64,000 nt of DNA from Holothuria leucospilota. Lineage: Eukaryota. Both the position numbers and the translations under genes were made by a program. This document shows positions 2,975-48,904 of this stretch, piece after piece. Numbering within the stretch: the first letter of the stretch is position 1; each line of letters begins with the position of its first letter. The notes beneath the pieces were generated by a model. It was not told the DNA's origin. It did no database searches and was given only the letters and a program-made list of their open reading frames with translations. Where the stretch lies: positions 6,848,493 to 6,912,492 of the forward strand of contig CM055976.1 in NCBI GenBank assembly GCA_029531755.1, in the 5' to 3' direction.

Positions 2975-5045
2975 TTTTGGTTACTATGAAAGAGAAACCT
3001 ATGCGTTCATGATGGTGTGTGTGTGTGTATTAAAGTATGTGTGTTTGTGACACTTTGCTTATTAACACAATATCTCAAGAAGGGAAAGTGTGACAGTTCT
3101 CAAAACTTGGTACATAGATGCTGAATATTAAGAGAAACAAACCTATTGTCTTTATGTAGGCCAAAGCACATCTGGGGTCAAACTCTGAAAAACTTGTTAA
3201 CACAATATCTCCAGGTAGAAAGCTTGGATAAATTTCATACGTAGTTTATGGATGCATTATGGTCTGAGGAAGAATCCTGTTGTTTTTGGTGGAAGTCAAG
3301 GTCATTTGAAGTCACAAGGGTCAAACCCTGAAAACCTTGTTAACATGATATCTCAAGGGAGGAAGCTTGGATAAATGTCATACTTAGGATGTAGATGCCT
3401 TATGGTGAACAGAAGACTCTGTTGTTTTTGTTGGATGTCAAAGGTCATCTGAGGTCACTGGGGTTAAGCTCTCAAATTGTTTTTTTTAACACAATATCTT
3501 GTGGTGGGAAGCTTGGATAAATTTCATACTTAGTATGTAGATGTGTTATGGTCAGGGGAAGAACCATATGGTTTTTTGGTGGAGGTCAAAGGTATAAGGT
3601 CCCTTGGGGGTCAAACTCTGAAAACCTTGTTAACATGATATCTCAAGGAAAGAAGTTTTACTAAATTTCATACTAGATGCCTTATGGTGAGAGCAAGAAC
3701 TTTTGTTACTTTTATACTTAGTATGTAGATGTGTTATGGAGGAAGAACCCTATTGTCTTTGGTAGTTGTCAAAGGTCATATAAGGTCACCAGGGCCAAAC
3801 CCTGACAAATTTTAACATGATATCACAAGGTAGGAAGCTTGGATAAATGTCATACTTAGGATGTAAGTGCCATGTGGTATGAGGGAGAATCCTGTCATTT
3901 TGGTGGAGGTCAAAGGTCATCTGGGGTCACCAGGGGTCAAACCCTGAAAACCTTGTTTAACATGATATGTCAAGATAGGAAGCTTGGCTGAATTTCATAC
4001 CTAATATGTAGATACCTTATGGTGAGAGGAAGAACACTTTGTTATTAGTGGGGGTCAAGGGTCATCTGGGGTCACCAAGTGTCAATCCCTGAAAAACCTT
4101 TTGAACATGATTTCTCAAGTAAGGCAGCTTGGATAAATTTCATACTTAGCATGTAGATGCTTTATGATAAAAGGAAAAACCCTGTTGTTTTTTGTGGAGG
4201 TCAAAGGTCATTTTGGGTCACTGGGATCAAACTCTGTAAACCTTGTTAACATGGTATCTCCAGATAAGAAGCTTGGATAAATTCATTATTTAGTATGTAG
4301 GCATGCTTTGGTGACATTTAAAACCCTATTGTTTTGATGGAGGTCAAAGGTCATCTGGGGTCAAAACCTGAAAACCATTTTAACAGCAAGGTAGGAAGCT
4401 TGGATAGATTTCGTATTTGGTATTTGGTTGCCTTATTGTCAGAGGAAAGACCCAGTTGTTTTGATGGGGGTCAGAAGTCATCTGGGTCACCAGTGGTCAA
4501 ACTCCTGAAAACTTTTTTAACACGATGTCTCAGGATAGGAAGCTTAACTAAATTCCATACTCTACATCTAGATGCCATATGGTTAGAGGGAAAACTCTAT
4601 TGTGTGATAGTGGAGATCAAAGGTCATCTGGGGTCACCAGATGTCACAAAGCAAAATTTCCCAAGAATTCCCAATATCGTTATCTGACTCACTGGAGGTC
4701 AAAAAGGAAAATTTCCCAAGGAATTCCCAAGATCTTTATCTGGGGTCATTGGAATTCAAAAAGCAAAATTTCCCAAGGATTCCCAAGATCATCATGTGGG
4801 GTCACCACAGGTCCAAAAGCAAAATTTATGAAGAGTTCCCAAGATTGTCATCTGGAGTCACCAGAAGTCAAAATGCAAATTTCCCAAGAATTCCCAACAT
4901 CAAATATGAACACAAAACTATTTTTCCACATGTTAAGATAGCATTTGACCAGTGACTGAAAGAAATGCGACAACATGACATTATTTGGAATAAAACATAT
5001 ATCATGGAAACCTCAATGCATTTTGCTATCTGGTTAGTGAAAAAA
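2975..5045 (+). mobile_element. Composite satellite-carrying element, family 1, copy A. It has a head (gaaagagaaacctrtgc...catgatg), a (TG)n tract, about 12 diverged units of a ~145-bp tandem repeat (core GGTCAAAGGTCATCTGGGGTCAC), a tail carrying ~60-bp subrepeats (aaagcaaaatttcccaagaattcccaagatc), and a conserved terminus (...gacaacatgacattatttggaataaaacatat...gcatt...ctggtt).
   Basis: The same head/array/tail architecture recurs at 35510-37770 and 50945-52890. The periodicity is visible from the recurring ggtcaaaggtcat / cttggataaatttcatacttagtatgtagatg motifs. Confidence 0.8.
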
Positions 5046-22609: not shown

Positions 22610-22792
22610 ACATTACATCGTCTGACAGCTCGGGCTCTTATTCGGGACTGGGAAGATGGCATGCTAGATATGGACCGCATAGAGGAAGAGATAGCTAAGG
22701 AGAAAGAGAAGCAAGCAATTATTTCTCTGAGCAGACAATACAGCATTGTTACTAGTCTTACAAGCTTTGTTGCAATCGAAAAGAGAGAAAAG
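22610..22792 (+). CDS. PARP4: Exon encoding TLHRLTARALIRDWEDGMLDMDRIEEEIAKEKEKQAIISLSRQYSIVTSLTSFVAIEKREK, which is the conserved C-terminal block of the ITIH/VWA5A/PARP4 family.
   Basis: Acceptor tattttgagcAG (22607-09) and donor GAAAAG|GTATGT (22793). The motifs LHRLAA..LI and S..TSFVA.E are conserved in VIT-vWA proteins. Confidence 0.7.
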
Positions 22793-23716: not shown

Positions 23717-23854
23717 CATGAAGTACAGAGGAAGTCCAACATGGAAGAGAAATTGAAGGAATTACTTCAGATGGAAGACGTTGATGTTTTACCTTACATG
23801 GATTGGCAACTCAGGCAGGAAATGACCATTGACTTTAATGATAAAGACAAATGG
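23717..23854 (+). CDS. Candidate exon (HEVQRKSNMEEKLKELLQMEDVDVLPYMDWQLRQEMTIDFNDKDKW). It has an open frame but a weak GTTTGT donor.
   Basis: Acceptor cactcatgacAG (23714-16). It is open in the phase predicted from the previous exon. The donor AATGG|GTTTGT is non-consensus. There is no homology support. Confidence 0.35.
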
Positions 23855-24707
23855 GTTTGTAAATGTTTAGAAAAAATTTAAAGTTTAGAAAAATTTCAAA
23901 TTTTAGAAAATTTTTAATTCTCAAGATGTAAAATCCTTTTCCATTTCTTGTTAGAGAAATGTAGATGAAAGCAAATACAAACAATAGCACTCAGTGATTA
24001 TTGAGACTTGTGAAGTATTTTAGTGAAGTATATAAATTAGGCTTATCAAACCTAATTGAGGGCTGCCATTTTTTTCTTTTTTTTTCTGTTTTCATGATTA
24101 TAGCATGATGGTGCAATGTTAGCTATTAAGTATTTATCTCAGGCATCTACTCTGCACATGGTACCCTGGTTTCGTCTGGTTTCCCCTCCCTCCCCCCCCC
24201 CTTGTTATTGGTCAATTATTTACAGCACATTACTGTTGGTCAGTCAGGACCCTCGATCCCTATCCCATGTTAGTAACATAATACTTCATTGCAGAGTGAA
24301 GAGAATACACAAGTAACATGTAGGCTGTGATTGGTACACTGTCTCTTGGCCTTTAATCAAATGGGTTGAAATGGCAAATTTGTAGCAAGATTTTGATGGT
24401 ATTTACTTGTTTAAGTAAGTAATTTATCATTAATCTGTATATTTTAGAGAATCTTCTAGTTTTCGTGATTTGAAACAATGGCCACGTGTTTTACTAGACA
24501 GAGTTGCTGTCAGTCCAAGGCACAGGTATTGGCTCAGTGTATTATGGCTTGAAATGAACAGGAACTGATGTTTAGCACAAAATTCAGATTGTGTGCCTTG
24601 AGGTAACTTTCAGTTTCAGGTAGTACTGTGTTACAAAGACATGGTTCTGTGGTCAGAAGATTTCAGGCGTAATAGTTCTGTGGTAACAATTATTTTTCTT
24701 TGTGTAG

Positions 24708-24782
24708 GATAAAGAGGCTAGAAAATATGAAGATGGCATGCATGATGATGAACCAAGCTCTAGTGATGAGGAGAGTATAGAG
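24708..24782 (+). CDS. Candidate acidic exon (DKEARKYEDGMHDDEPSSSDEESIE). Its 3' end, together with the adjoining intron start, is the progenitor of the downstream 67-bp tandem array.
   Basis: Acceptor ttctttgtgtAG (24705-07) and consensus donor ATAGAG|GTAAGG (24783). Phase 0 to phase 0. Confidence 0.4.
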
Positions 24783-26880
24783 GTAAGGACTGCAGTAACT
24801 ATATACAATTGTGATTGAAACCAGCTGTAGTGATGAGGGCTGCATAGAGGTAAGGACTGCAGTAACTATATACAATTGTAATTGAAACCAGCTGTAGTGA
24901 TGAGGGCTGCATAGAGGTAAGGACTGCAGTAACTATATACAATTGTGATTGAAACCAGCTGTAGTGATGAAGGCTGCATAGAGGTAAGGACTGCAGTAAC
25001 TATATACAATTGTGATTGAAACCAGGTGTAGCGATGAGGGCTGCATAGAGGTAAGGACTGCAGTAACTATATACAATTGTGATTGAAACCAGCTGTAGTG
25101 ATGAGGGCTGCATAGAGGTAAGGACTGCAGTAACTATATACAATTGTGAATGAAACCAGCTGTAGTAATGAGGGCTACATAGAGGTAAGGACTGCAGTAA
25201 CTATATACAATTGTGATTGAAACCAGCTGTAGTGATGAGGGCTGCATAGAGGTAAGGACTGCAGTAACTATATACAATTGTAATTGAAACCAGCTGTAGT
25301 GATGAGGGCTGCATAGAGGTAAGGACTGCAGTAACTATATACAATTGTGATTGAAACCAGCTGTAGTGATGAGGGCTGCATAGAGGTAAGGACTGCAGTA
25401 ACTATATACAATTGTGATTGAAACCAGCTGTAGTGATGAGGGCTGCATAGAGGTAAGGACTGCAGTAACTATATACAGTTGTAATTGAAACCAGCTGTAG
25501 TGATGAGGGCTGCATAGAGGTAAGGACTGCAGTAACTATATACAATTGTAATTGAAACCAGCTGTAGTGATGAGGGCTGCATAGAGGTAAGGACTGCAGT
25601 AACTATATACAATTGTAATTGAAACCAGCTGTAGTGATGAGGGCTGCATAGAGGTAAGGACTGCTGTAACTATATACAGTTGTAATTGAAACCAGCTGTA
25701 GTGATGAGGGCTGCATAGAGGTAAGGACTGCAGTAACTATATACAATTGTGATTGAAACCAGCTGTAGTGATGAGGGCTGCATAGAGGTAAGGACTGCTG
25801 TAACTATATACAGTTGTGATTGAAACCAGCTGTAGTGATGAGGGCTGCATAGAGGTAAGGACTGCAGTAACTATGTACAATTGTGATTGAAACCAGCTGT
25901 AGATGAGGGCTGCATAGAGGTAAGGACTGCAGTAACTATATACAATTGTAATTGAAACCAGCTGTAGTGATGAGGGCTGCATAGAGGTAAGGACTGCAGC
26001 AACTATATACAATTGTAATTGAAACCAGCTGTAGTGATGAGGGCTGCATAGAGGTAAGGACTGCAGTAACTATATACAATTGTGATTGAAACCAGCTGTA
26101 GTGATGAGGGCTGCATAGAGGTAAGGACTGCTGTAACTATATACAGTTGTGATTGAAACCAGCTCTAGTGATGAGGGCTGCATAGAGGTAAGGACTGCAG
26201 TAACTATGTACAATTGTGATTGAAACCAGCTGTAGTGATGAGGGCTGCATAGAGGTAAGGACTGCTGTAACTATATACAATTGTGATTGAAACCAGCTGT
26301 AGTAATGAGGGCTGCATAGAGGTAAGGACTGCAGTAACTATATATAATTGTGATTAAAACCAGCTCTAGTGATGAAGGTAGTATAGAGGGTTTTCACGAT
26401 GTCACGTGATTATGCATCTCTCTGGTATTGAAGGGCAAGATCGTGCGTCTCTTTGATTTTGACTGTCACGGGTCCATTGTGTTACAGAAGTATCTATGGT
26501 TATGCGTGTGCGTGTGCAGTAAATACGCTTACTGCGTGTGTGTTTTGCCCTTCAATGCCTGGGATTCCCATGCATGTGACATCACATGAAATCCCTCTGT
26601 AGAGGAAGGGATTGCACTTACTATATACAATTGTGATTAAAACCAGCTCTAGTGATGAGGGCTGCATAGAGGTAAGGACTGCAGTAACTGTATATAATTG
26701 TGATTAAAACCAGCTGTAGTGATGAGGGCTGCATAGAGGTAAGGACTGCAGTAACTATATGCAGTTGTGAGTGAAACTAGCTCTAGTGATGAGGGCAGTA
26801 TAGAGGTAAGGACTTCAGTAACTTTATGCAGTTGTGAGTGAAACTAGCTCTAGTGATGAGGGCTGTAGTTATTTAGTTAT
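24783..26880 (+). repeat. Tandem array of about 31 copies of a 67-bp unit (GTAAGGACTGCAGTAACTATATACAATTGTGATTGAAACCAGCTGTAGTGATGAGGGCTGCATAGAG). It starts exactly at the splice donor of the exon 24708-24782. The unit is the last 27 nt of that exon plus the first 40 nt of the intron.
   Basis: Direct reading shows copies >90% identical, each containing a GTAAGG donor consensus. The exon 3' end agctctagtgatgaggagagtatagag matches the unit 3' part agctgtagtgatgagggctgcatagag at 23 of 27 positions. Confidence 0.9.
26389..26597. mobile_element. Small (~210 bp) hairpin-forming insertion that interrupts the 67-bp array. It is MITE-like.
   Basis: It breaks the array periodicity. Internal inverted repeats ggtattgaagggcaa / ttgcccttcaatgcc and cacgatgtcacgtgat / catgtgacatcacatg are present. 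Confidence 0.5.
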
Positions 26881-27478
26881 CATCTCAGATTGGTCTCTAC
26901 TGTCATAGATACATGAAGGAATCCTGCAATTTTAGTGATGAAAGTTTTCAAAATATCAGTGGAAAACAAGCCTGAGTTTTTACAGTTTACATGGATCTAA
27001 GAAATCACTGGAATGTTGTGAAGGATGTAAGTGAAATATGATTGTACTGACTTTCTATGTATGGAGAGAGCTACATTTTGTCATCAAACCATGCTCCTAA
27101 GTGGCTCCTATTTATCCCACTTTCTCTGTCTTTTGAACTTCCTCCTATTTCTTCTACTTTTTGCCTTCAAATTCTGCATCATCCTACTTTTCCTTCTTTA
27201 TCCCACTTGTTTGTATTTAAAAGAGATGTGTACCGTAGGATGTTAACGTTGTTGAAAAAAATCTCTTTAGAGTCACTATTCTGCCACTATTCCTGAGTAT
27301 GGATGAATAAACGCTTGCAAAAACCTGGCTTTTGTCCTACTTTTGGTCCTTAAAATCCTTCTGATATCCTGTTTTATGGAGAATTCGGATCTTATTTTAA
27401 TCCATTTTCTTTGCCTGAATTCACTTAAAAGCCTGTCATACATAGCTAAAGCGTAAATGTTTTTGTGTATTTTTCCAG

Positions 27479-27604
27479 AATTTGCCCTCTGCTGATCATG
27501 AAATAATGGATTATGCAGAAGAAGTTATCAGACACTTTGATGGGGAGGATTCTACTTCATCAGAAAGTGACTCTTCCTCAAGTGTGTGTTGTTATTCTGA
27601 TAAA
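27479..27604 (+). CDS. Candidate acidic, Ser-rich exon (NLPSADHEIMDYAEEVIRHFDGEDSTSSESDSSSSVCCYSDK).
   Basis: Acceptor gtatttttccAG (27476-78) and donor GATAAA|GTGAGT (27605). Phase 0 to phase 0. Confidence 0.4.
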
Positions 27605-28504
27605 GTGAGTGAACTCTTGAGCCATAGGTCATGTCTGAAGGTTCAAAAGACTGGAATATACAAGGTCTGTAAATATTGATCGTATCATTAAGATATTACA
27701 TGACACAGGAATCAAGCCTTTGAAACATTATTAGTTGTCACTAACCAGAAGTCTCATTATTTCCTAACTTTTATGTGTCTTCCTGTCTTATTACAAACAA
27801 AAGGGAAGTTACGAGTAACTGTGCATTGCATTTTAAAATTAATTTAGAAGAATTAACAAAGCTGTTCAAAATTAATTTAAGAGAAATAAAACCCAAGTTT
27901 TGAGTTAAACATGTGATAGTACCCAGATATCATCGAGTTAAGTCCATTTCATGAGTTCTGACTTCGCATTTCAGATAACTTGCAATCACTGTTTCCCCAA
28001 CTTTGGTATACTTTCATTTTCAAATGTCCTTTCAACTGGATGTTGAAGGGCAAAACAAAGCAAAACCTTTCCCCATGAAGGGGCCCCACTCCCCAAAAGA
28101 GCTTTGTCTTCAGAAGGGACACCATAATGCATGCAACTTTGTTAGTTCTTTTGATAATTATCCCTGACTAAAAGCAGCTTTACTCAAGTGTCACATGACC
28201 AGACTTGCATAATTGTCTGTCTACAAAGAGCTGTAATGAGACTGCAATGACTTAGACTGGACTGATCAACCTCTCAACCTTCAAACCAGGTCTGTCACGC
28301 GTAAATCTGTTCTGACTGAACAGAATTGATACTATAAAAGACCTTAGCCAAAGGGATGAGAAACCCATCATAATTTGTGTCCACAAAGAACTATGATGAA
28401 AATGTACACATAATGTTAGATGAGCATTTTATTTCTCTGGCACTGCAAGGCTAAAGCTGCCAGTTGCCTATAATTTATTACAGTGTAATCAAACCAATAG
28501 GATG

Positions 28505-29060
28505 TATATTTATTAGCTCAACCAGTTGAGCTATTGCCATGGCAGTGTATCTGTCTGTCTGTCTGTAGGTCAAAGGTCATTTGGGATCATGAGAGGTCAA
28601 AGAGTGATATCATGCAAAAGCCTTCAACTCCTGGTACTTACATCTCAATCTTTTCAAATGTAATGGGAGTGTTCAGTAAATGATGGATCTTCAAATTTTC
28701 TACTTTTGAAATAGATTAAAGGTCATTTGGGGGTCAAAGAAAGGTCAAACAAAAGGTCAAACAGTGTAATCCTGCAAAAACCTTCGTCTCCTAGACATTG
28801 TGTCTGAATTTTAGTAGATTTTGTAAGAGTGTTTAGTAGATAATAGTCATCAAAGTTGTACTTTTGAAGTTGGTCAAAGGTCATTTGGGTTCAAAGAGAG
28901 GTCAACAGTGAAATCACTCAAAAACTTTCACCCCCTAAGGGGTTGTATCCAAATTTTATCAAAGTTGGCCAAAGTGCTTAGTAGATGACAGGTCATCAAA
29001 TTTTTGAAGTTCAAAGGTCATGTGGGGTCATAAAATGGTTGAACAATGGAATCATGCAAT
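28505..29060 (+). mobile_element. Family 2 composite element. It has a hairpin head (TTATTAGCTCAACCAGTTGAGCTATTGCCATGGCA), a (GTCT)n microsatellite and about 3.5 units of a ~150-155-bp satellite (GGTCAAAGGTCATTTGGG...AGCCTTCAACTCC...).
   Basis: Perfect palindrome AGCTCAAC-c-AGTTGAGCT at 28514-28530, then (gtct)4, then tandem units. A second copy with the same head lies at 47535. Confidence 0.75.
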
Positions 29061-32000
29061 AACCTTTAACTCCACTGGAAAACTACCTAAGATCTAAAAG
29101 AAATACAGAGTAAAGTTAAGTGCTATTTAAAATATATCAAGGTGGGAAAACTTGTAAAGAATAATTGTAACAAGTCTAGAATGGTATCACACTATCACAT
29201 ATATGCTGGAAGTTTCTCCACTTCAATAGACCTTAATATGCACTGACAGCGTGACGTCAGTTTGGAGGAAAACAGTGAAGTACAAGTGCACAAATGGAGA
29301 TCTCGCATGCATGTGTAGTAGACTTACGCGCGTATACCATTGGTTGACAAATCAGCTGTCTGGCATTTGTTGGTGTAACTTGCAATGATACGCCATTTTC
29401 CTCCAAATAAGGGAGCACTTTCTGCTCTGTGACATCATATGCATAAGGTCTATTCATCATTTCGTCCATTACCAAACCGTAACATAATGGACCAGCCAAT
29501 CATTTTTAAAATGTTTTTGCATTCACAAAAAGTAAAATAGAGAATATAGACAAGAGTATCAATGATGCTGCAGCTCAACTTTGAGTTTCTCACACAAAGT
29601 TACTGTTATGTTGTTTCGTTAGGGATTCAAACCAAGGAGTCATGGACAGTAATATTACTTGGATGTATGTTCAGGGACAAGTGATATTACTGGGAAGTAT
29701 GGTCAGGGACGAATAATATTACTGGAAAGTTTAGTCAGGGATGAGTAATATTCCTGGAAAGCATGGTCAGGGGCGAGTAATATTACTGCACATGACATAA
29801 CTCAGATAAGACTGCAGTCAACAGGTAGCTGGTTCTAAGTTCTGCTGGTCTGGTCTCTTGGTTTAACCACACCTTCAATATTGTTGAACTTTGTGCAAAA
29901 ATGAAACGTGCATATAACTTTGCGGTTTGGAAATGCTTTCAACACCTTGGAGCTTTGTAATTTGCTTTTCAGGGACCCTTTTCCTCCCTTGATGATTTGT
30001 TGTGGAATGCAAAAGGAATCTTAGTGGTGTTTTTTTATGTATGGGTCTGTGTATGTGGATGTGCATGTGTGATGCATAGCATCTACACACAGGGTAGCCA
30101 GAGAGGATACATGGGTTCTTAATACGTGAGTTCTTACATAGCTGGTGCATGTATGGGTCATATTTAAAGTTAGAACCCTACTGTTTGGTGGTGGTCAAAT
30201 GTGACTTGATTTCAGCAGAGGAAAAGAACGCTATTCTTTTCAATGAAGGTCACGACGCTAGAAAAGAATACCAAGTTTTAGCCATCCCTAGTTACCACTT
30301 TTAATCCACAATCTGTCAGTGAACTTCCTGTGCAGCTATCCTGAGATCAATAAAGTTAAAGGGGTTTGGTGTTGTATTGAAATGAGGCACAGATGTAAAT
30401 GATAAATTTCATCACTTTGTAACAGCTCTTAACAAAGGTATGGCTTGAACCCTTTAGAGACTGTTTGCTCAAGAGAGCAAGTTGTTTACAAAAGGGTAAT
30501 ATTAACTGCTGCAAGTGATGAGATAAGGTTCACCTAGGAAAAGGCATTTTGGGGGGTGATTTTGGCTAAAATCTCCTAGTCAATTCTAGCAGCATGTCTT
30601 AGCTTATTTTAGGTCATCAGGAGTAACGGTTTCAGTGGTTGCTGAAACCCTTGATGTAAAAACGATATCACCAAGAGGGAACATCCAGGCATGAGCTTTT
30701 TCCGCGAATTCGCGGATTTCCGTGATTTTTTTCCAACTTCCGCTATTTCGCATTTTCATTTCCGCGAAAAAATGTGAAGTTGAAAATGGGAACAGCACGT
30801 GATTTATCATAAGATGTCAGTGAAACAGCATAGTGTCTTCAGTAAAATGTGTATTTCCACATATTTTGTTTACGTTTCACTGCAGCTGGAAATGCATAGT
30901 CGACATGTTTAATTATGATACCCTTTTTCCTTGTCATATCATAGCTCCTAGGTCATACTGTGTATGTGCTGCTTGAAAGTGGAAAGTAAAAGTGGAAGCA
31001 AATAGTCATGTCCACGCCATATACTTAGTACATACAGTATTATAGCGCTCTGATTTAGTGCAAGTTTTGTATACATGTACGTACGTCCATTGGCCCTACA
31101 TGTATCTGTACATGCAAGTGTGTACTGCACCATGCTTGCTACTAGAGTTACTGTATACTACAACGTAACTTGGTGGGCACTGAACAGAACGATCGTCTGC
31201 AAGTTAATCAAAGCTTGTATATTCACAGGGAATGTGCAAAATAATCAACTGAGCCCTTTCCTACATCTTTATAAGGTTTAAGGCAGGTTGCATATTCTGT
31301 TCATACATCTGTCACTAACTTAGAGGCATTGCCATTAATTAGGCCTAGGCTACCTGCTTACACTATCCTAACATAGGTTATATATGTGCACTGCTATTGA
31401 GCCTAGCCCATACTCGCACAGGCTGACAGGTCTCTGGCTGGGTCTGAAGAAGGCAGCCATTCAGGGATTTGGCATGAAGTTTGTAACAGACTGGTACCAA
31501 TTTTCACCAAAAGAGCTAGAAATTGGTGCCTTAAATTAGACTTTACCTAACAAGGCTAGGCCTAGGCCTAATGTTTGGCCTTTGAAGTTTTGGCCTAGCC
31601 TATGCAAGGCATGGCTCATAAATGTGCTTTACTTTACAGAGCACAGCCAAGGCACTTTCCTTAGCCAAATGTTCTGATGTACAAAAAGGGCTAATATTTA
31701 CTAGTAGGTAGGCCCTCTACTTTAAAGCCTAGGCCTATAGGCAAAAGGCCTCTAAAATGTGCTGCAAGTTGAATGGTGTTAAAACTTAATAGTGAGCCAC
31801 AAAATAATGTTGGACACTGGATCAAAGAAATCAAGAAGCCAGTTGGTATGAACTAGGTTTTGGGAAAGACAAGGTATTAATGTTGACCCAACTTAGTGAA
31901 CCTTAACACATAGGTTATACAGTATGTTACGCTTAGGTTGTTTTTGTAATTTGTTTCAACAAAATATGATAAACAGTTAGCCCATTTGGGCCTTATGAAA

Positions 32001-33961: not shown

Positions 33962-34055
33962 TTGGGCGGGAAACTCAAGGAAGTGGAAACTAGTGATGAT
34001 GAGGAAGAAGATACCATGTCATTTGATCTGGGTCTGGCTGAAGAACTATATGATG
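33962..34055 (+). CDS. Candidate exon encoding the acidic module, from the degenerate zeroth copy of the 4-kb unit (LGGKLKEVETSDDEEEDTMSFDLGLAEELYDg).
   Basis: Acceptor ttctactgtAG (33959-61) and donor TGATG|GTAATT (34056). Phase 0 to phase 1, matching the phase-1 start of the SSELEE exons downstream. Confidence 0.25.
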
Positions 34056-35509: not shown

Positions 35510-37770
35510 CTGTTTTTGGTTTCGATGAAAGAGAAACCTGTGCAGTCATGATGGCGTATGTGTGTATGTATGTGTGTGTGTTTGGGTGTGTGGGTGTGTA
35601 TGTGTGTGTGTGTTTGTGACGCTTAGCTTGTGTGCACGATATCTCAAGAAGAGAAACTCCGACAGTTTTCTAACTTGGTACATAAATGCCCCATATTACA
35701 AGAAAGAACCCTATCGTTTTTGGTGGGGGTCAAAGGTCATCTGGGGTCACCGGGGGTCAAAACCTGAAAACCTTGTGTGCACGATATCTCAAGTTAGGAA
35801 GCTTGGATGAATTTCATACTTAGTGTGTAGATGTGTTATGGTAAGAGGAAGAACCCTATTGTTTTTGGTAGAGGTCAAAGGTCATCTGGGGTCACTGGGG
35901 GTAAAACCCTGAAAACCTTGTGTGCACGATATCTCAAGGTAGGAAGCTTGGATGAATTTCATACGTAGTGTGTAGATGTGTTATGGTAAGAGGAAGAACC
36001 TTATTGTTTTTGGTGGAGGTCAAAGGTCATCTGGGGTCACTGGGGGTCAAAACCTGAAAACCTTGTGTGCACGATATCTCAAGTTAGGAAGCTTGGATGA
36101 ATTTCATACTTAGTGTGTAGATGTGTTATGATAAGAGGAAGAATCCTATCTTTTTTGGTGGAGGTCAAAGGTCATCTGGGGTCACCGGGGGTCAAAACCT
36201 GAAAACCTTGTGTGCACGATATCTCAAGGTAGGAAGCTTGGATGAATTTCATACTTAGTGTGTAGATGTGTTATGTTAAGAGGAAGAACCCTATTATTTT
36301 TGGTGGAGTTCAAAGGTCATTTGGGGTCACTGGGGGTCAAACTCTGAAAACCTTGTGTGCACGATATCTCAAGGTAGGAAGCTTGGATAAATTTCATACT
36401 TAGTATGTAGATGCATTATGATAAGAGGAAGAACCCTATTTTTTTTTGGTGGCGGTCAAAGGTCATGTGGGGTCACCGGAGGTCAAACTCTGAAACCTTG
36501 TTAACACAATATCTCAAGAAAGGAAGCGTGGATAAATTTCATACTTAGTATGTAGATGCGTTATGGTAAGCGGAAGAGCCCTATTATTTTTGGTGGAGTT
36601 CAAAGGTCATTTGGGGTCACTGGGGGTCAAACTCTGAAAACCATGTTAACACAATATCTCAAGGTAGGAAGCTTGGATAAATTTCATACTTAGTATGTAG
36701 ATGCGTTATGATAAGAGGAAGAACCCTATTTTTTTTTTGGTGGCGGTCAAAGGTCATGTGGGGTCACCGGAGGTCAAACTCTGAAACCTTGTTAACACAA
36801 TATCTCAAGGTAGGAAGCTTGGATAAATTTCATACGTAGTATGTAGATGCGTTATGGTAAGCAGAAGAGCCCTATTGTTTTGGGTGGACATCAAAGGTCA
36901 TCTGGGGTCACCAGGGGTCGAATGCTGAAAACCTTGTTAACACAATATCTCAAGGTAGGAAGCTTCGATGAATTTCATACTTAGTGTGTAGATGTGTTAT
37001 GGTAAGAGGAAGAACCCTATTGTTTTGGGTGGAGGTCAAAGGTCATCTGGGGTCGCCAGGGGTCGAATGCTGAAAACCTTGTTAACACGATATCTCAAGT
37101 TAGGAAGCTCGGATAAATTTCATACTTAGTGTGTAGATGTGTTATGGTAAGAGGAAGAACCCAATCATTTTTGGTGGCGGTCAAAGGTCATCTGGGGTCA
37201 CCGGAGGTCAAACTCTGAAAACCATGTTGACACAATATCTCAAGATAGGAAGCTTGGATAGATTTCATAGGTATTATGTGGATGTGTTATGGTGGGAAGA
37301 TGAATGCTATCATGTTTGGTGGAGGTCAAAGGTCATGTAGGGTCACCGGGGGTCAAACACTGAAAATGTTTTTAACATGATATCTCAAAATGGGAAGCTC
37401 GAATAAATTTCATGCGTAGTATGTACATGCATTATGGTAAGAGGAAGAACCCTATCGTTTTTGATGGAGGTCAAAGGTCATCTGGGGTCAAAAAGCAAAA
37501 TTTTAAGAATTTCCAAGATCGTCTCATGAGTTCACCAGAAGGCAAAAAGCAAATTTTCCCAAGAATTCCCAAGATCATCATCTTGAGTCATCAGATGTCA
37601 AAATGCAAAATTTCCCAGGAATTCCGAAGATCAAATATGAACCTAAAATTATTTTTCCAACATGTTAAGATAGCACTTGACCAGTGACTGAAAGACATGG
37701 GACATCATGGCATTATTTGGAATAGAACATATATCATCAAAACCTCAATGCATTTTTGCATTCTGGTTGA
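35510..37770 (+). mobile_element. Family 1 satellite-carrying element, copy B. It is the least diverged copy, with about 13 units of 145 bp. Its (TG)n-rich head lies at 35555-35625. It is inserted into, and replaces part of, the 4-kb duplicated unit.
   Basis: Unit period measured as 145 bp (ggtcaaaggtcat at 35728, 35873, 36018...). Tail subrepeats lie at 37480-37630, and the terminus at 37640-37770 matches 4900-5040 and 52760-52890. Confidence 0.85.
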
Positions 37771-38773
37771 AATTAATAAAGGAACATATTAAAGATGCTG
37801 TGAGGGTAGAGAGGTGTTTTGAACATAGAATCATGAATGTGCACCTTGCATGTCTCTTGTTGAGATCATCTGTGTGGCATTAAATTGGAATTTTGTGGAG
37901 ATGTATTGGCTTGGTCAGCAAATCAGCAAAAGTGTCCATAGGGTTAAGTGCTGAGAGGTTTCAACTGATACAGTAATTCATTGGTGCCATGAAGGAATTT
38001 ATAGTTCAGATCTTTGTGAAGGGGTAAAGTGCCAGTCAGTAAGTGTGAACTACCCCTTTACAGTCTGTGGAAAAGTAGCTGAAGACTGGGGCTACATTCT
38101 CTTACAGTTGGAGGGCATTTTAAACCCCTGGTTTAGCATCTAGAGTTTTAGTGTAGATACCTGCCACATCTTGACTCTGAAAGATTCAATTCTGCCAGTG
38201 AAAATATTTTGAGCCTACAATTACAATTAATGGGGAGCATTGGACAAAAATGTCCACTTAGTATAGATCTGTCCTATATCATTTGGTTGTGAAGTGCATT
38301 TTTAGATGAATGTAAGGTTGATAGTGTCATTTATTAAATCAACAATAGAACATGAAGTAAATTAAAGCACTGACCACCAACTATTATGAAAGTCATTAAA
38401 GTATGGAATCCACAGTGTAAAGCAGGATTGGGCACTTAAGGACCTGAAAGATGCACTTGGGGTCATCAATGTAAGTTGTGTTAACTACTTAATTATGTGC
38501 TGGTATGTTACAGTAAATATGATTTTATGCAGAAGTGTAGAATCTCACCACTTTCTGCACATTTTTGGTAAATGACTGTGTAGGTAGTACCATCACTAGT
38601 GTAGTACTGCACTCCACAGTATGGAGAATTGCATTATGTGTTGTATTGCATAAACCAGGTGCAGAAGTAGTTGGCTTTAACTTACCTTGGCAGGTTCTAT
38701 TATAAAAACACACCCTGTGAGTTAAATCATTACATACTAATGAATGAATAGTTTCATTGCTGGTTGTTTTCAG

Positions 38774-38832
38774 ATATTCTTTATAGTGCAGCAGTACTAC
38801 GCACAGATTCTTTTTCTTCAGAACTCGAAGAG
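38774..38832 (+). CDS. Candidate 59-bp exon ((D)ILYSAAVLRTDSFSSELEE) in copy 1 of the 4-kb tandem unit.
   Basis: Acceptor ggttgttttcAG (38771-73) and consensus donor GAAGAG|GTAAGG (38833). Phase 1 to phase 0. It is duplicated with intact splice sites at 42882 and 47022. Confidence 0.25.
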
Positions 38833-39476
38833 GTAAGGGTTTTTAAGGTTTTAATTCTCACAAGTTATTAGTCCAACCAGACTTGAAAATACAGACAGGG
38901 GATCACATAACCAAAAATTGATACAACTGTTTGGACAAATTTAGGCCTACAAGTATGGCTACTGATGTTGGCATAAATGTGATGATGAAAGTGCATTATT
39001 TCAGACAAAATACACCCAGAGTATAAAAGAGATGTGAAAAGTTTTCATACCAATTGTTGATTTTTACCAAGCCTTGCATATTTTCAAAAGTTTCCCAAGT
39101 TTCATGTGTCAACTGTTGCATATTTGTGTATGATGGATTCCTTGAGTAAGTCCAAACTTAACACAAAAGACATATACCAGCAGACCAGCAGCCATATTGG
39201 TGGACGCGATGTTGCAGGAGGCAGTCACAGTAATATAGTAAGAAAGCTGATACATTGTGGAGACACAAAAATATCAGTATCTAGAGCTGTGTTTCATATG
39301 AAAACAGTTGAAACAGTGAAAACAGTATCTAGGGCTATGCAACATTAAAACAGTAACAGCAGTATGAAGGGTGTGAAAAACTGAAACAGTTTAGATGAAA
39401 GCTTCATAAAAAATGATGATCAGTGAGGTTGTTAGATGTCAAAGTTACATTAGTATTTTTTTTCCATCTACTGTAG

Positions 39477-39573
39477 TTGGGCACAAACCTCAAGGAAGTG
39501 GACACTAGTGATGATGAGAAAGAATATACCATGTCATTTGATCTGGGTCCATCTTAAGAAGTTCCACCTGCTG
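39477..39573 (+). pseudogene. Copy of the LKEVETSDDE-module exon carrying an in-frame TAA (LGTNLKEVDTSDDEKEYTMSFDLGPS*). It is probably a dead or skipped exon copy.
   Basis: It has the same splice-site architecture as 43551-43647 and 33962-34055. An in-frame stop lies at ~39555-39557. Confidence 0.3.
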
Positions 39574-42500
39574 GTAATTCATTATAATTTGTGACAGTGT
39601 TGTCAAAAATACCTTACTGAACAGAAGATAAAATCCAAATCGAATTAAAAACTACTCCATGCATAATCTGTGCATTTGTGTTTGTGATGCTAGTTGCAAA
39701 GAGGATATCTTAGGACAGGAATGATGGATACTCACATATTGTTGTTGGTGGAGGTCAGGGTCATTTGTAGGGTCATTTGAGGTCACTAGGGGAAACTACA
39801 GAATCCTTGTAAACTGCTTGTAAACGTGATATCTTAAGAAGAGTAACATGAACTTCAAGGGATCTTGTATGTGACATGTGGATGCCCTATCTTGAAAAGA
39901 AGAATGCTATTAAGTAAGGTTTCATATAGTGTCACCATGGGTCAAATTGAGAAAAGCTCATAAACATGATATATCAAGAAGGGTAACTGTCAGGTATCGC
40001 TCATGTAACAAGTATCTGCTCAAAATTGAGTTCAAGAAGGCTGTTTTTATTAGTGAAATTCAAAGGTTATGTTAGGCCACCAGATATTAAACTGTGAAAA
40101 TCTGATATACAAAAATGTCTCAAGAAGGGAAGCTGTGATGATTCTCATACTTTTTTTATTTGTTTTATCACATTCTCGAGAAGTACAGTAAGATAAAAAT
40201 ATTTACATTATGCATTACATGAATGTATACTTAGCAAGAAGAAGCCAAAGCTTATAGTGAGTAGAAGAAACATTTTGATTTTGGTTGAGGTCAGAGGTCA
40301 TTTTGGATCAAGCGAGATCAATCTGATAGTCTTGTATGTTTAATATGCCTTTTGTATTATTAATGGTACATGTCAGGGTCTTCTAGTCTGCTATCACCTG
40401 GCAATGCTGGGCAGACTGAAAGAATTTGGCTTTTGCTACTTTCTTTCAGCGAGAAATGATGGAATGGAAATCAGGAAGATTGCCTCTTATGTATATATCG
40501 CCTCTCATCTATTCATTGTCATGGTACCGAGAGCAGAAGATGTATGGGTTTTCATACAATGCTTGATTTGTGAATTATGTTTCAATTTCCTCAGGAGAGG
40601 CTTTGACAAGTGAATGTACAGGAAATAGATTTTTTGAACTGAACAGTATTGATAAGCAATATCAATATTCATGACTTACAGTGCAGACTGCAAAGTTCAC
40701 TGTACAGGGAATAATGTACAGTAGTGTTCAAGATTTGCATAGCAAGTTTGAGGTTTCTGGGCTTCTCTTTCACAAAATCATTTAAAACCCTGTTGTTGTG
40801 TGTACATGTTCTACACAATTTTGCAATTGTGTAGCAATTCGCCCATCCTGTGTAGCAAAATGCGATGCGATACGGGAGAAATTATTCCCTGGTGTACCAT
40901 CAGTTGGGAGCTTTTTTACATTCAAATGGAAGCTAGGAGTAACTTTTTTTCTTACTTTAAGTTTCTAGAATAATCTTTTTACTCCAAGTTTGAGATATTT
41001 GTAGTTAATGTAGGATACTATTTTCTTGAAGGACTATTGCTTTACCCAGTGAATGATTTCAAAAACCTTGATTTTAGCAAGAAGATTGTTTTTGCTAATA
41101 CAAAATACCGCAGCACGTCTCTGTACTTGGGACAGCAAAAGGACAATCCTTCCTGGCAAATATTGTAATCCTGTAATGTCAAACTGGCTTATTCAGTTAT
41201 AGTTACCTAAGATAAATTGACAGAATATCTTATGTGTTTTAGCTCAAGAAACTTAAAGGCATTGTCTGGTGGCATTTTGTAGGGGTCTTATATAAAAGTT
41301 ACTACATGTCATCCAAACCCCATACCAAAACTCCAATCCTAACTCAAGATATCCCTTCCCAAAGATTAGTTACTTTTGACAAGAAACACCTCCAGATTTC
41401 CTCTAGGTCACAGAAGGTGAAGCCAAGTGGGCAAATTGTCTCAGGTCCTTTTGTTATTCTTTGTAATTTTATACCTTGTTTGTCCTTGAAATTTGATACT
41501 GTTGGAATGTTTAGATGCTCTTCCGTGTAGATATAGTGTAAAACTGCTCCATACCTATATGGAACAGCAAATAAAGTTATGAAATAATCAATTTAATGAT
41601 ATCAACATTAAAAAGAAATACAAAAGCTACATCTAATCAATTTGCCCAGATGACATCACAGATTTCCCATAATGTACTGGCAGAACCTGAAAATGTAGCA
41701 TCTCTTCAAAAATTCATATCTTCCAGATGCAAGATGGTATTGAGATGGGGTTTTCACTGCCTAACATAGAAAAGTTTTCTGCTTTTTTTGAAAACATCAA
41801 ATTTGGTCACCAGAACATGCTTTTAACTGTTTTGTAAAGGTGAAATAAGAAGATAGGTGTTGAAACCTGAATGAATGGCTTTTAAGAAGTTGAAATCATT
41901 TTTGAAATTAATAAAGGAACATATTAAAGATGTTGTGAGGGTAGAGAGGTGTTTTGAACATAGAATCATGAATGTGCACCATGCATGTCTCTTGTAGAGA
42001 TCATCTGTGTGGCATTAAATTGGAATTTTTTGAAGATGTATTTGCTTGGTCAGCAAATCAGCAAAAGTGTCCATAGGGTTAAGTGCTGAGAGGTTTCAAC
42101 TGATACAGTAATTCATTGGTGCCATGAAGGAATTTATAGTTCAGATCTTTGTGAAGGGGTAAAGTGCCAGTCAGTAAGTGTGAACTACCCCTTTACAGTC
42201 TGTGGAAAAGTAGCTGAAGACTGGGGCTACATTCTCTTACAGTTGGAGGGCATTTTAAACCCCTGGTTTAGCATCTAGAGTTTTAGTGTAGATACCTGCC
42301 ACATCTTGACTCTGAAAGATTCAATTCTGCCAGTGAAAATATTTTGAGCCTACAATTACAATTAATGGGGAGCATTGGACAAAAATGTCCACTTAGTATA
42401 GATCTGTCCTATATCATTTGGTTGTGAAGTGCATTTTTAGATGAATGTAAAGTTGATAGTGACATTTATTAAATCAACTATAGCACATGAAGTAAATTAA

Positions 42501-42881
42501 AGCTCTGACCAACAACTATTATGCAAGTCATTAAAGTATACAATCCACAGTGTAAAGCAGGATTGGGCACCTAAGGACCTGAAAGATACATTTGGGGGTC
42601 AACAATGTAAGTTGTGTTATCTATTATGTACTGATATGTTACAGTAAATACCATTTTATGCAGAAGTGTAGAATCTCACCATTTTCTGGTCATTTTTGGT
42701 AAATAGCTGTGTAGTACCATGACTAGTGTAGTACTGCACTCCACAGTATGAAGAGCATAAACTAGGTGCAGAAATAGTTGGCTTTAACTTACCTTGGCAG
42801 GTTCTAATATAAAAACACACCCTGTGAGTAAAATCATTACATACTAATGAATGAATAGTTGTCATTGCTGGTTCTTTTCAG

Positions 42882-42940
42882 ATATTCTTTATAGTGCAGC
42901 AGTACTACGCACAGATTCTTTTTCTTCAGAACTCGAAGAG
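42882..42940 (+). CDS. Candidate exon ((D)ILYSAAVLRTDSFSSELEE), copy 2 of the SSELEE exon.
   Basis: Identical to 38774-38832. Acceptor cAG at 42879-81 and donor GTAAGG at 42941. Confidence 0.25.
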
Positions 42941-43550
42941 GTAAGGGTTTTTAAGGTTTTAATTCTCACAAGTTATTAGTCCAACCAGACTTGAAAGTAT
43001 AGGCAGGGGATCACAAAACCAAAAATTGATTCAACTGTTTGGACACATTTAGGCCTGCCAGTATGGCTGTCAGAACTACTGATGTTTGCATAAATGTGGT
43101 GATGAAACTGCGTTATTTCAGACAAAATACAGACAGAGTATAAAAGAGATATGAAAATTTTTTGTACCAATTGCTGATTTTTTCCAAGCCTTGTATTTTT
43201 TCCAAAGTTTCATGTGTCAACTGTTACATATTTGTGTATGATTGACTACTTGAGTAAGTCCAAACTTAACACAAACAGCATACACTAGCAGACCAGCAGC
43301 CATAGTGGTGGTAGCGATGTTGAAGGAGACAGTCACAGTAATATGGTAAGAAAAGCTGATACATTGTGTAGACACAACAACATCAGTATCTAAAGCTGTG
43401 TTTCATATAAAAACAGTTGAAACAGTAAAAACAGTATCTAAGGGTGTGAAAAACTGAGACAGTTTAGATGAAAGCTTCATGAAAAATGATGATCAATGAG
43501 GTTTATTAGATGACAAAGTTACATTAGTATTTTTTTTCCTTCTACTGTAG

Positions 43551-43647
43551 TTGGGCACAGAACTCAAGGAAGTGGAAACTAGTGATGATGAGAAAGAATA
43601 TGCCATGTCATATGATCTGCCTCCGTCTGAAGAAGTTCCAACTGCTG
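43551..43647 (+). CDS. Candidate exon encoding the acidic module, copy 2 (LGTELKEVETSDDEKEYAMSYDLPPSEEVPTAg). The frame is intact.
   Basis: Acceptor tctactgtAG (43548-50) and donor CTGCTG|GTAATT (43648). Phase 0 to phase 1. Confidence 0.25.
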
Positions 43648-46600
43648 GTAATTCGTAATAATTTGTGACAGTGTTATCAAAAATACCTTACTAAACAGAA
43701 GATAAAATCCAAATCCAATTAAAAACTACTCCATGCATAATCTGTGCATTTGTGTTTGTGATGCTAGTTGCAAACAGGATATTTTAAGACAGGAATGATG
43801 GATACTTCCATACTGATGTTGGTGGAGGTCAGGGTCATTTGAGGTCACTAGGGGAAACTACAAAATCCTTGTAAACTGCTTGTAAACGTGATATCTTAAG
43901 ACGAGTAACAAGAACTTCAAGGAATCTTGTATGTGACATGTGGATGCCCCATCTTGAGAAGAAGAATGCTATTAAGTAAGGTTTCATATAGTGTCACCAT
44001 GGGTCAAATTGAGAAAAGCTCATAAACATGATATATCAAGAAGGGTAACTGTCAGGTATCGCTCATGTAACAAGTATCTGCTCAAAATTGAGTTCAAGAA
44101 GGCTGTTTTTATTAGTGAAATTCAAAGGTTATGTTAGGCCACCAGATATTAAACTGTGAAAATCTGATATACAAAAATGTCTCAAGAAGGGAAGCTGTGA
44201 TGATTCTCATACTTCTTTTATTTGCTTTATCACATTCTTGAGAAGTACAATAAGGTAAAAATATTTACATTATGCGTTACATGAATGTATACTTAGCAAG
44301 TAGGAGCCAAAGCTTATAGTGAGTAGAAGAAACGTTTTGATTTTGGTTAAGGTCAGAGGTCATTTTGGATCGAGAGATGTCAATCTGATAGTCTTGTATG
44401 TTTAATATGCCTTTTGTATTATTAATATTACATGTAAGGGTCTTCGATTCTGCTATCGCCTGGCAATGCTGGGCAGAGTGAAAGAATTTGCCTTGTGCTA
44501 TTTTCTTTCAGCAAGAAATCATGGAATGGAAATCAGGAAGATTGCCTCTCATGTATATGTTACCTCTTATCTATTCATTGTCATGGTACCGAGAGCAGAA
44601 GATGTATGGTTTTGCATGCAATGCTTGATTTGTGAATTATGTTTCAATTTCATCAGGAGAGGCTTTGACAAGTGAATGTACAGGAAATAGAATTTTTGAA
44701 CTGAACAGTATTGATAAGCAATATGAATATTCATGACTTACAGTGCAGACCGCAAAGTTCACTGTACAGGGAATAATGTACAGTAGTGTTCAAGATTTGC
44801 ATAGCAAGTTTGAGGTTTCTGGGCTTCTCTTTCACAAAATCATTTAAAACCCTGTTGTTGTGTGTACATGTTCTACACAATTTTGCAATTGTGTAGCAAT
44901 TCGCCCATCCTGTGTAGCAAAATGCGATGCGATACGGGAGAAATTATTCCCTGGTGTACCATCAGTTGGGAGCTTTTTTACATTCAAATGGAAGCTAGGA
45001 GTAACTTTTTTTCTTACTTTAAGTTTCTAGAATAATCTTTTTACTCCAAGTTTGAGATATTTGTAGTTAATGTAGGATACTATTTTCTTGAAGGACTATT
45101 GCTTTACCCAGTGAATGATTTCAGAAACCTTGATTTTAGCAAGAAGATTGTTTTTGCTAATACAAAATACTGCAGCACGTCTCTGTACTTGGGACAGCAA
45201 AAGGACAATCCTTCCTGGCAAATATTGTAATCCTGTAATGTCAAACTGGCGTATTCAGTTATAGTTACCTAAGATAAATTGACAGAATATCTTATGTATT
45301 TTAGCTCAAGAAACTTAAAGGCATTGTCTGGTGGCATTTTGTAGGGGTCTTATATAAAAGTTACTACATGTCATCCAAACCCCATACCAAAACTCCAATC
45401 CTAACTCAAGATATCCCTTCCCAAAGAATAGTTACTTTTGACAAGAAACACCTCCAGATTTCCTCTAGGTCACAGAACGTGAAGCCAAGTGGGCTAATTG
45501 TCTCAGGTCCTTTTGTTATTCTTTATAATTTTATACCTTGTTTGTCCTTGAAATTTGATACTGTTGGAATGTTTAGATGCTCTTCCTTGTAGATATAGTG
45601 TAAAACTGCTCCGTACCAATATGGAACAGCAAATAAAGTTATGAAATAATCAATTTAATGATATCAACATTATAAAGAAATACAAAAGCTACATCTAATC
45701 AATTTGCCCAGATGACATCACAGATTTCCCATAATGTACTGGCAGAACCTGAAAATGTAGCATCTCTTCAAAAATTCATATCTTCCAGATGCAAGATGGT
45801 ATTGAGATGGGGTTTTCACTGCCTAACATAGAAAAGTTTTCTGCTTTTTTTGAAAACATCAAATTTGGTCACCAGAACATGCTTTCAACTGTTTTGTAAA
45901 GGTGAAATAAGAAGATAGGTGTTGAAACCTGAATGAATGGCTTTTTAGAAGTTGAAATCATTTTTGAAATTAATAAAGGAACATGTTAAAAATGTTGTGA
46001 GGGTAGAGAGGTGTTTTGAACATAGAATCATGAATGTGCACCATGCATGTCTCTTGTAGAGATCATCTGTGTGGCATTAAATTGGAATTTTTTGGAGATG
46101 TATTGGCTTGGTCAGCAAAAGTGTCCATAGTGTTATGTGCTGAGAGGTTCCAACTGGTAATTCATTGGTGCCATGAAGGAATTTTGTAGTTCAGATCTTT
46201 GTTAAGGGGTAAAGTGCCATTCAGCTAGTGTGAACTACCTCTTTACAGTCTGTGAAAAAGTAGCTGAAGACTGGGGCTACATTCTCTTACAGTTGGAGGG
46301 GATTTTAAACACCTGGTTTAGCATCTAGAGTGTTAGTGTAGATACCTGCCACATCTTGACTTTGAAAGATTCAATTCTGCCAGTGAAAATATTTTGAGCC
46401 TACAGTTACAATTAAGGAGTATTGGACAAAAAATGTCCACTTAGTATAGATCTGTCCTATATCATTTGGTTGTGCAGTGCATTTTAGATGAATGTAAAGT
46501 TGATAGTGTCATTTATTAAATCAACTATAGAACATGAAGTAAATTACAGCACTGACCACCAACTATTATGCAAGTTCTTAAAGTATGGAATCCACATGCA

Positions 46601-47021
46601 GTGTAAAGTAGGATTGGGCACCTAAGGACCTGAAAGATATACACTTGGGGTCAACAATGTAAGTTTTGTTATCTACTTAATTCTGTGCTGGTATGTTACA
46701 GTAAATATGGTTTTATGCAGAAGTGTAGAATCTCTAGCCATGTGTTCAAAAAATAATAAATTGTTAGCTCACTAATTATCCTGCTCACCACTTTCCGGAC
46801 ATTTTTGGTAAATGACTGTGTAGGTAGTACCATCACTAGTGTAGTACTGCACTCCACAGTATGGAGAATTGCATTATGTGTTGTATTCAATGCATAAACT
46901 AGGTGCAGAAATAGTTGGCTTTAACTTACCTTGGCAGTGTTCTAATATAAAAACACCCCCTGTGAGTTAAATCATTACATACCGTAATGAATGAATAGTT
47001 TTCATTGCTGGTTATGTTCAG

Positions 47022-47080
47022 ATACTCTTTATGGAGCAGCAGTACCAGCCACAGCATCTTTTTCTTTGGAACTCGAAGAG
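47022..47080 (+). CDS. Candidate exon, diverged copy 3 of the SSELEE exon ((D)TLYGAAVPATASFSLELEE).
   Basis: Acceptor gttatgttcAG (47019-21) and donor GAAGAG|GTAAGT (47081). Splice sites and frame are conserved despite 12 substitutions. Confidence 0.2.
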
Positions 47081-47534
47081 GTAAGTGTTTTCAAGACTTT
47101 GCCACAAGTTATCAGTCTATAGCAGACTTGAAAATATAGACAGGGGATCACATAACCAAAAATTGATTCAACTCTTTGGACAAATTAAGGCTTACCAGTA
47201 TGGCTGCCTGAACTATTGTTGTTTGCATAAATGTGATGATGAAACTGCATTATTTCAGACAAAGTACAACCAGAGTATAAAAGAGATATGAAAAATTTTC
47301 ATATCAATTGCTGATTTTTACCAAGCCTTAATGTGTTTTTTCAAAAGTTTCCAAAGTTTCATGTGTCAACTGTTGCATATTTGTGTATGATGGACTACTT
47401 GAGTAAGGCCGTACTTTACACAAATGACATAGGCCAGCAGCCATATCGGCAGGCATAATTGTGCATGTACGCTGATGACACTCTACTGTAAATCATTTTG
47501 GTGCAGTGTGCTCTGTCAGTGTTTATCACAAGTG

Positions 47535-48870: not shown

Positions 48871-48904
48871 AGTGTGCAGTGGATGATGCATAGGTGTACT
48901 TTGT

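Follow-up and report, generated by a model that had tools for sequence, protein, structure and literature searches.

The stretch analysed here, 64,000 nucleotides (nt) of contig CM055976.1 from Holothuria leucospilota (hereafter the window), carries on its + strand a PARP4 (vault PARP)-like gene, and one 2.7-kb intron of this gene contains a 67-bp minisatellite whose first unit spans the exon-intron junction. The gene was deduced from six-frame open reading frames (ORFs) combined with homology searches. The homology detected by tblastn and BLASTP continues through the VDxLPYMDW motif, which exon B carries in the form VDVLPYMDW. The exon that follows, exon C, is a short acidic exon at 24708-24782, and the array begins within it and runs into the intron that separates it from exon D (see the table of features below for all coordinates).

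Tandem Repeats Finder divided the array into two blocks with a 67-bp period, the first at 24751-26389 (24.5 copies, 95% matches, score 2982) and the second at 26600-26865 (4.0 copies, 89% matches). According to the unit table, the whole array (24751-26389 plus 26598-26865) consists of 28.4 head-to-tail units: units 1-24 are intact, unit 25 is split by an insertion, units 26-28 are again intact, and unit 29 is a partial copy of 24 nt that ends at ~26865; one of the units 2-24 has a 2-nt deletion. Unit 1 (24751-24818) was found to be made of the final 32 nt of exon C and the initial 36 nt of the intron. When it was compared with the array consensus, 0 differences were found in the intron part and 6 in the exon part (Fisher P = 0.007). 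The left end of the array lies inside the exon rather than at the end of a transposon, and no further copies of the unit were detected elsewhere in the 64-kb window. A dispersed repeat or a transposon-borne satellite was rejected on these grounds, given the left edge inside the exon and the lack of a second copy of the unit both in the window and in the corresponding locus of the sea cucumber Apostichopus japonicus (see below).

The two blocks differ in homogeneity. Units 2-24 deviate from the consensus at ~2% of their positions, and units 25-28 carry 3-11 differences each. Several of the differences in the distal units are states shared with the exon, namely the C at agctCtag and AGTATAGAG; the central consensus bears the derived changes agctGtag and ...GCTGCATAGAG. 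The C-to-G change in the derived units creates the palindrome CAGCTG (an E-box / PvuII site, for example at 24822-24827), which was seen at window positions 24819-26357 in most central units, and CAGCTC is the form of the exon copy and of most distal units. The unit has 21 variable columns, in which the variants form structured, non-random patterns, and units 15-17 and 20-22 have one three-unit pattern in common. A 2-kb array of 67-bp units that are 95-100% identical is hard for short-read assemblers, and the array or its length might be an assembly artefact, produced by false expansion or collapse. This is very unlikely, since the 21 structured variable columns, the diverged distal block, the unit with the 2-nt deletion and the unique insertion inside the array make up an internal structure that such an artefact does not produce.

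The boundary between the homogenised proximal block and the diverged distal block is formed by the insertion in unit 25. Its inverted arms (26382-26438 and 26545-26601; 57-59 nt) are imperfect, with 73% identity, and the insertion, folded as single-stranded DNA, gave a hairpin of -39.2 kcal/mol, compared with -22.2 +/- 3.3 for shuffled sequences (z = -5.2). When the insertion was removed together with one flank copy, a 67-nt unit was restored. The sequence T(A/G)TAGAGG is present on both flanks and represents a duplication of 6-8 bp; its GAGG can pair, in addition, with CCTC at the 3' end of the inverted repeat, which leaves both the termini and the length of the duplication ambiguous. By its inverted repeats and its absent coding capacity, the insertion looks like a miniature inverted-repeat transposable element (MITE). 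Like MITEs, it is short and non-coding, and has long imperfect terminal inverted repeats, hairpin potential and a short direct duplication. Unlike them, it is a single copy in the sequences covered, a search of the window (64 kb) and of the A. japonicus locus (60 kb) having given no second copy, a weak negative at this scale, and the duplication overlaps sequence that resembles the inverted-repeat ends.

The array does not encode an expanded protein repeat. All three + frames of the unit are stopped (8 stops per 3 units) and 67 is not a multiple of 3, by which a coding repeat was ruled out. On the minus strand, the ORFs across the array reach merely 47-91 amino acids, and neither an exact nor a homologous match to them was found in the protein collections searched. 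When the whole window was searched against Rfam with gathering cut-offs, 0 hits were obtained, and an exact-pattern scan of JGI metagenome contigs for the 67-bp array gave 0 matches. Other short tandem arrays were observed in the window at 29639-29788, 35559-35618, 47581-47620 and 56676-56960 (32 bp x 4.7, (TG)n, (GTCT)n and 64-79 bp x 2-3), and the region is tandem-repeat-rich overall.

The hexamer GTAAGG occurs 27 times in 24700-26900, once as the authentic donor at 24783 and 26 times as a copy of it. All 27 are intact GAG/GTAAGG sites with the same 9-mer throughout (the slash marks the exon-intron boundary or its equivalent in the unit). A 29-nt motif around the donor gave 27 matches in the window, and the expectation based on 100 shuffles was 0. 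Unit 25, which adjoins the insertion, has lost its donor (GAG/GAAGGG). The authentic donor agrees with the consensus CAG/GTAAGT at 7/9 positions, contiguously from -2 to +5, and together with that of exon A (also 7/9) it is the joint best match among the inferred donors of the gene in the window. As the first unit is a real junction, GAG/GTAAGG is reiterated 26 more times at 67-nt intervals within the 2.7-kb intron. In a fold of the exon with four units, the donors had a predicted unpaired probability of 0.6-0.7, which does not support the idea that they are masked by RNA structure. The longest invariant run of the unit, 15 columns (26-40) in 26 units, has the donor at its centre. With the variable columns placed at random, P was 0.026 for the donor 9-mer containing none of them and 0.04 for the run length, both tests being post hoc. 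On these counts, the preliminary description of this DNA, which had put the reiterated donors at about 31, overestimated them: Tandem Repeats Finder, the unit table and the motif count gave 28.4 units with 26 donor copies. Its reading of the array as a non-coding 67-bp minisatellite was recovered in two blocks with stops in all three + frames, and the hairpin-forming interruption of ~210 bp that it had reported was confirmed as 208 bp at 26390-26597 with inverted arms.

Use of any of these copies as a 5' splice site would be without coding benefit. When the exon is read through into the intron, VRTAVTIYNCD is encoded up to a TGA, which lies 12 codons beyond the exon (codon 37) and 34-36 nt into the intron. 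Since this TGA is met whatever the frame of the downstream donor, splicing from any copy would be non-productive, and the ladder of donors can give neither in-frame isoforms nor a productive backup donor. All 27 donors would have to use the acceptor of exon D as their partner. The units themselves offer little as acceptors: the pyrimidine share is 33% before the AG of GTAAGG and at most 47% for any AG of the unit, compared with 60-87% at the inferred acceptors of the gene. Recursive splice sites (YnAG/GTAAG) were rejected, as no pyrimidine tract was found upstream of the GT, and without a pyrimidine-rich acceptor in the units, pseudo-exons as well as recursive splicing are unlikely.

Table 1. 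Exons of the PARP4-like gene and features of the 67-bp array (window positions; kb values are approximate as given)
Feature	Position	Strand	Remarks
PARP catalytic exons	~10.6-11.6 kb	+	homology
VIT exons	13.0-15.9 kb	+	homology
VWA exons	18.1-19.4 kb	+	homology
Exon A	22610-22792	+	last of further exons before exon B
Exon B	23717-23854	+	HEVQRK...VDVLPYMDWQ...DKDKW; inferred donor TGG/GTTTGT, phase 0
Exon C	24708-24782	+	75 nt, phase 0/0, DKEARKYEDGMHDDEPSSSDEESIE; final 32 nt are the 5' part of unit 1
Proximal homogenised block	24751-26389	+	units 1-24 and 5' 32 nt of unit 25; 24 intact GAG/GTAAGG including the authentic one
Authentic 5' splice site, most upstream	24783-24788	+	GAG/GTAAGG
Left flanking duplication	26382-26389	+	TATAGAGG, read from sequence
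Insertion, non-coding, MITE-like	26390-26597		208 bp, terminal inverted repeats, inside unit 25
Right flanking duplication	26598-26605	+	TGTAGAGG, read from sequence
Distal, more diverged block	26598-26865	+	3' part of unit 25, units 26-28 (3 intact donors), 24-nt partial unit 29
Exon D	27479-27604	+	126 nt, phase 0/0, open frame, NLPSADHEIMDYAEEVIRHFDGEDSTSSESDSSSSVCCYSDK; acceptor tttttccag/, donor AAA/GTGAGT

The closest relative of the host gene came from an exhaustive profile search and is a protein of 1229 amino acids (P0121), 69% identical over exons A-B; it is encoded by contig MRZV01000344.1 in assembly GCA_002754855.1, the Apostichopus japonicus genome (PMC6586643). The only relative found to be closer than this is a Tara Oceans scaffold (L002, 1,039 bp) with 83% DNA identity to exon B and a conserved donor region; it ends before the position of exon C and does not include the array region. 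An exact look-up of the VIT-exon ORF gave no match on record. In the A. japonicus annotation, the BRCT and PARP catalytic domains (L001 1-9732, L001 being the A. japonicus locus) and the VIT/VWA domains (10001-50356) were observed as two adjacent genes on the same strand. The PARP catalytic and VIT exons are contiguous on the + strand of the window, which suggests that the A. japonicus pair is a single PARP4 gene split by annotation.

The authenticity of exon C was then judged from its frame, its signals and its counterpart in A. japonicus. Exon C has one open frame only, with a TAG directly upstream, and this frame fits the phases of exons B and D; its acceptor contains 80% pyrimidine in the 15 nt before the AG, and the 5' 43 nt of the exon and the acceptor lie outside the array. 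For exon B, only the phase-0 donor fits the downstream exons. In the P0121 model, the exon after exon B (L001 23660-23731, 72 nt, phase 0/0, SASREQEDDEDSSDSDGSDWSFLE) is likewise acidic and is serine-rich, and its donor is GAG/GTAAGA, compared with GAG/GTAAGG in the window. Exon C and this counterpart therefore agree in position, phase, size (75 compared with 72 nt), composition and donor. Moreover, in PARP4 proteins of many animals the VDxLPYMDW motif is directly followed by an acidic/Ser-rich stretch, and the composition of exon D matches the acidic/Ser linker of PARP4 orthologues. That 24708-24782 is not a used exon, and that the array is an intronic repeat with a donor-like motif arisen by chance, is unlikely. 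The 25-codon open frame is not significant alone, exon B must use the weak donor TGG/GTTTGT to stay in frame, and the segment is left unaligned to orthologues by BLASTP, so that the orthology of exon C is positional and not residue by residue. These points are opposed by the good acceptor and the strong donor, by the fact that the sole open frame is the one fitting exons B and D, and by the equivalent 72-nt phase-0/0 acidic exon of the A. japonicus model together with the acidic/Ser linker of the orthologues.

Acidic exons were also observed in several copies further downstream. In the window, copies beginning LGGKLKEVETSDDEEEDTMSFDLGL... are found at 33962-34055, 39477-39548 and 43551-43637 (65-79% amino acid identity), and a diverged version is present in each unit of a ~4.1-kb tandem duplication at 37767-47440 (37767-43291 compared with 41902-47440, 91% identity). 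A comparable acidic-exon repeat was noted in the A. japonicus model, with EIVEEDDESETEYELLPVVNEK at L001 32178 and 35098 and GMVEEDEP... at 30208 and 33155. The duplicated acidic exons in both suggest that tandem duplication of segments with exons is how the C-terminal acidic region of this PARP4 evolves. A composite repeat family with internal satellite-like arrays was seen as well, at window positions 3014-5035, 35585-37768 and 51585-52890, with related members at 47723-48886 and ~28500-29000; its units of ~145 bp (core GGTCAAAGGTCATCTGGGGTCACC) are followed by units of 54-56 bp, and the copies are 74-79% identical to one another. Single homologues of the 145-bp unit (~72%) were found in the A. 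japonicus PARP4 locus (L001 30481-30641 and 33428-33588), and the composite repeat is probably a transposon family shared among sea cucumbers.

The intron of A. japonicus that corresponds to the array-bearing intron (L001 23732 to ~24769) was examined for the 67-bp unit, and no match was found in it or anywhere in the 60-kb locus. Instead, 69% of this intron is a 21-bp x 34 minisatellite (L001 23833-24550, unit TGCAGCCAGACTGCATGATGC), which begins ~100 nt past the donor and is without the donor motif. The similarity between the 67-bp and the 21-bp unit was not significant (P = 0.16), and homology of the two units was rejected. A 10-mer, CTGCAGTAAC, stands near the start of both introns with weak significance (P = 0.025), at +8 of the window intron and at the start of the 21-bp array of A. 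japonicus. Because A. japonicus has the exon and a GAG/GTAAG donor without the 67-bp array, the junction is the older element, from which the array was derived. By this comparison the 67-bp array is lineage-specific, and the two loci suggest that minisatellites of unrelated units formed independently in this PARP4 intron in two lineages of sea cucumbers; independent minisatellites in one intron point to local repeat-proneness rather than function. The tandem amplification of an exon-intron junction, as the preliminary description had proposed, is hence supported by the anatomy of unit 1 and by an array-free orthologue, and the comparison of orthologous loci that it had called for showed exon and donor in A. 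japonicus and no 67-bp array.

The opposite direction, in which an older intronic minisatellite supplied the 3' end of the exon and the donor and its first unit was exonised, was also considered. The edges of an array are always the most diverged, so that the sequence of the array alone gives no direction, and the similarity between exon and unit may reach a few bases further upstream (gatgatgaa compared with gtgattgaa). The A. japonicus exon, however, ends in GAG/GTAAGA without any 67-bp array, and the 5' 43 nt and the acceptor of exon C lie outside the array; such a reversal is hardly credible.

Taken together, the array is probably a lineage-specific intronic minisatellite derived from the junction of exon C and its intron, with mostly silent copies, and a neutral or slightly deleterious by-product. 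A 67-bp segment across the junction would have been tandemly duplicated first, and then multiplied by replication slippage or unequal exchange. The exon-like states in the distal units fit an ancestral, exon-like founder unit, and the three-unit pattern duplicated inside the array is a signature of internal unequal exchange. A small inverted-repeat transposon may have landed later in unit 25, and the units upstream of it may have been homogenised since. The asymmetry of 6 and 0 differences in unit 1 would fit selection on the coding sequence as well as the mechanics of unequal exchange, by which the outer flank of an edge unit is not replaced; it does not discriminate and is claimed as evidence for neither. 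By analogy with the studied members of the class, the spliceosome would use the authentic, most upstream donor, and the copies would be silent or used at trace level; any transcripts spliced from a copy would be non-productive, with the TGA 12 codons downstream of the exon. The array would be a product of repeat instability, presumably neutral or slightly deleterious, and no device.

Several points weigh against this reading. The precedent on which donor choice is modelled comes from mammalian cells and a weak donor, and the donors of the window are strong; with 7 contiguous U1 base pairs and predicted accessibility, some cryptic use of the copies is plausible. The 15-nt invariant block around the donor could hint at constraint. 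BLASTP with composition correction left the low-complexity segment of exon C unaligned to orthologues, and we infer from the sequence both that exon C is expressed and which donor is used. Finally, the copy number of 28.4 is that of one assembled haplotype.

Some of these points would suit a functional ladder, in which recruitment of the U1 small nuclear ribonucleoprotein (U1 snRNP) strengthens the definition of the 75-nt exon, the inclusion of the exon is tuned by the copies as a decoy or sink, or a fraction of the transcripts is passed to nonsense-mediated decay as a means of regulation; decoy, sink and exon definition are the roles that the preliminary description had proposed. The donors are strong and, by prediction, largely free of base pairing, and no invariant run is longer in 26 units than that of the 15 donor columns (P about 0.03-0.04). 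The derived units differ from the exon in its purine-rich GAGGAGAG stretch (GAGGGCTGC) and so lose a putatively enhancer-like sequence yet keep the donor, and exon C, with phase 0/0, could be a cassette exon. Against this, the array is absent from the A. japonicus orthologue, the intron of which has an unrelated minisatellite without donors; reiterated donors were silent or marginal in the cases studied; and the sole hint of a decoy or sink, the invariance of the 15 columns, depends on weak post hoc tests, identical copies being what homogenisation would give by itself. A function of this kind is thus improbable. In its most definite form, the ladder of 26 strong, accessible and perfectly conserved donors would be kept by selection as a platform recruiting U1 snRNP that controls either the inclusion of exon C or a tunable, decay-bound fraction of transcripts, and we regard this as quite improbable. 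Were it so, copy number would be a heritable dial on vault-PARP expression, and in the derived units the donor would have been retained and the purine-rich, enhancer-like stretch of the exon lost. The by-product reading is preferred here: the array is an ordinary product of repeat instability, and it alters nothing known of splicing or of PARP4.

Minisatellites with a first monomer that crosses from exon to intron have been described before, in F7, IFI6/6-16, CBS, LMNB2 and PDGFA (Borensztajn et al., PMC1557585). Their sizes are 37 bp x 5-9 in F7 intron 7, 15-20 repeats in CBS intron 13, 100 bp x 10-15 in LMNB2 and 81 bp x 16-18 in PDGFA intron 4 (PMC1557585); IFI6/6-16 intron 2 has, by the summary in PMC1557585, 25 pseudo-sites behind its authentic donor. 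Experiments with F7 have shown that, among several identical donors, splicing takes place at the most upstream one only (PMC1557585). In F7, LMNB2 and PDGFA, the authentic donor alone is used, and the reiterated donors are functional but silent (PMC1557585); for IFI6 and CBS, use extends to the first two copies only (PMC1557585). In a genome-wide study, internal tandem repeats at exon-intron boundaries are reported to modify splicing in human duplicated genes (PMC2812944). The array of the window is a further example of this already described class, a large one and in an echinoderm-type genome, and it has the structural features of the class. Its unit of 67 bp lies within the 10-100 bp range and is repeated head to tail (28.4 units), its first unit corresponds, by annotation and comparison, to what appears to be a genuine exon-intron junction, and its donor is reiterated unchanged, GAG/GTAAGG being identical in 26 further units.

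The locus thus offers a clean, natural, echinoderm-type example of an arrangement known until now from a handful of genes in humans, and its main value would be as a natural system in which to test how one 5' splice site is chosen from several identical ones. As the donors are strong, 26 in number, evenly spaced and would be non-productive if used, they provide a stringent test of the rule, derived from F7, that the upstream donor wins, and a test outside mammals as well.

In comparison with F7, the first unit is again a real junction, and the authentic donor is followed in the same intron by regularly spaced, identical pseudo-donors in non-coding sequence. The two differ in unit number (5-9 in F7 and ~28 in the window), in the exonic nucleotides per unit (4 and 31-32), in donor strength (the weak UGG/gugggu and the strong GAG/GUAAGG) and in host (a mammal and a holothurian); moreover, polymorphism and donor choice have been shown experimentally for F7, whereas the array of the window is known from sequence alone. 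IFI6, as summarised in PMC1557585, is close in the number of reiterated donors (25, compared with 26 in the window) and in that the array begins at an exon-intron boundary. Compared with IFI6 as described there, the window differs in its period of 67 nt, which is not a multiple of 3, and in the TGA 34-36 nt into the intron, by which the use of a pseudo-site would truncate the protein. CBS, LMNB2 and PDGFA share with the window a comparable unit length and copy number and a reiterated donor; they differ in gene and taxon, and the array of the window is, in addition, split by a transposon into a homogenised and a diverged block.

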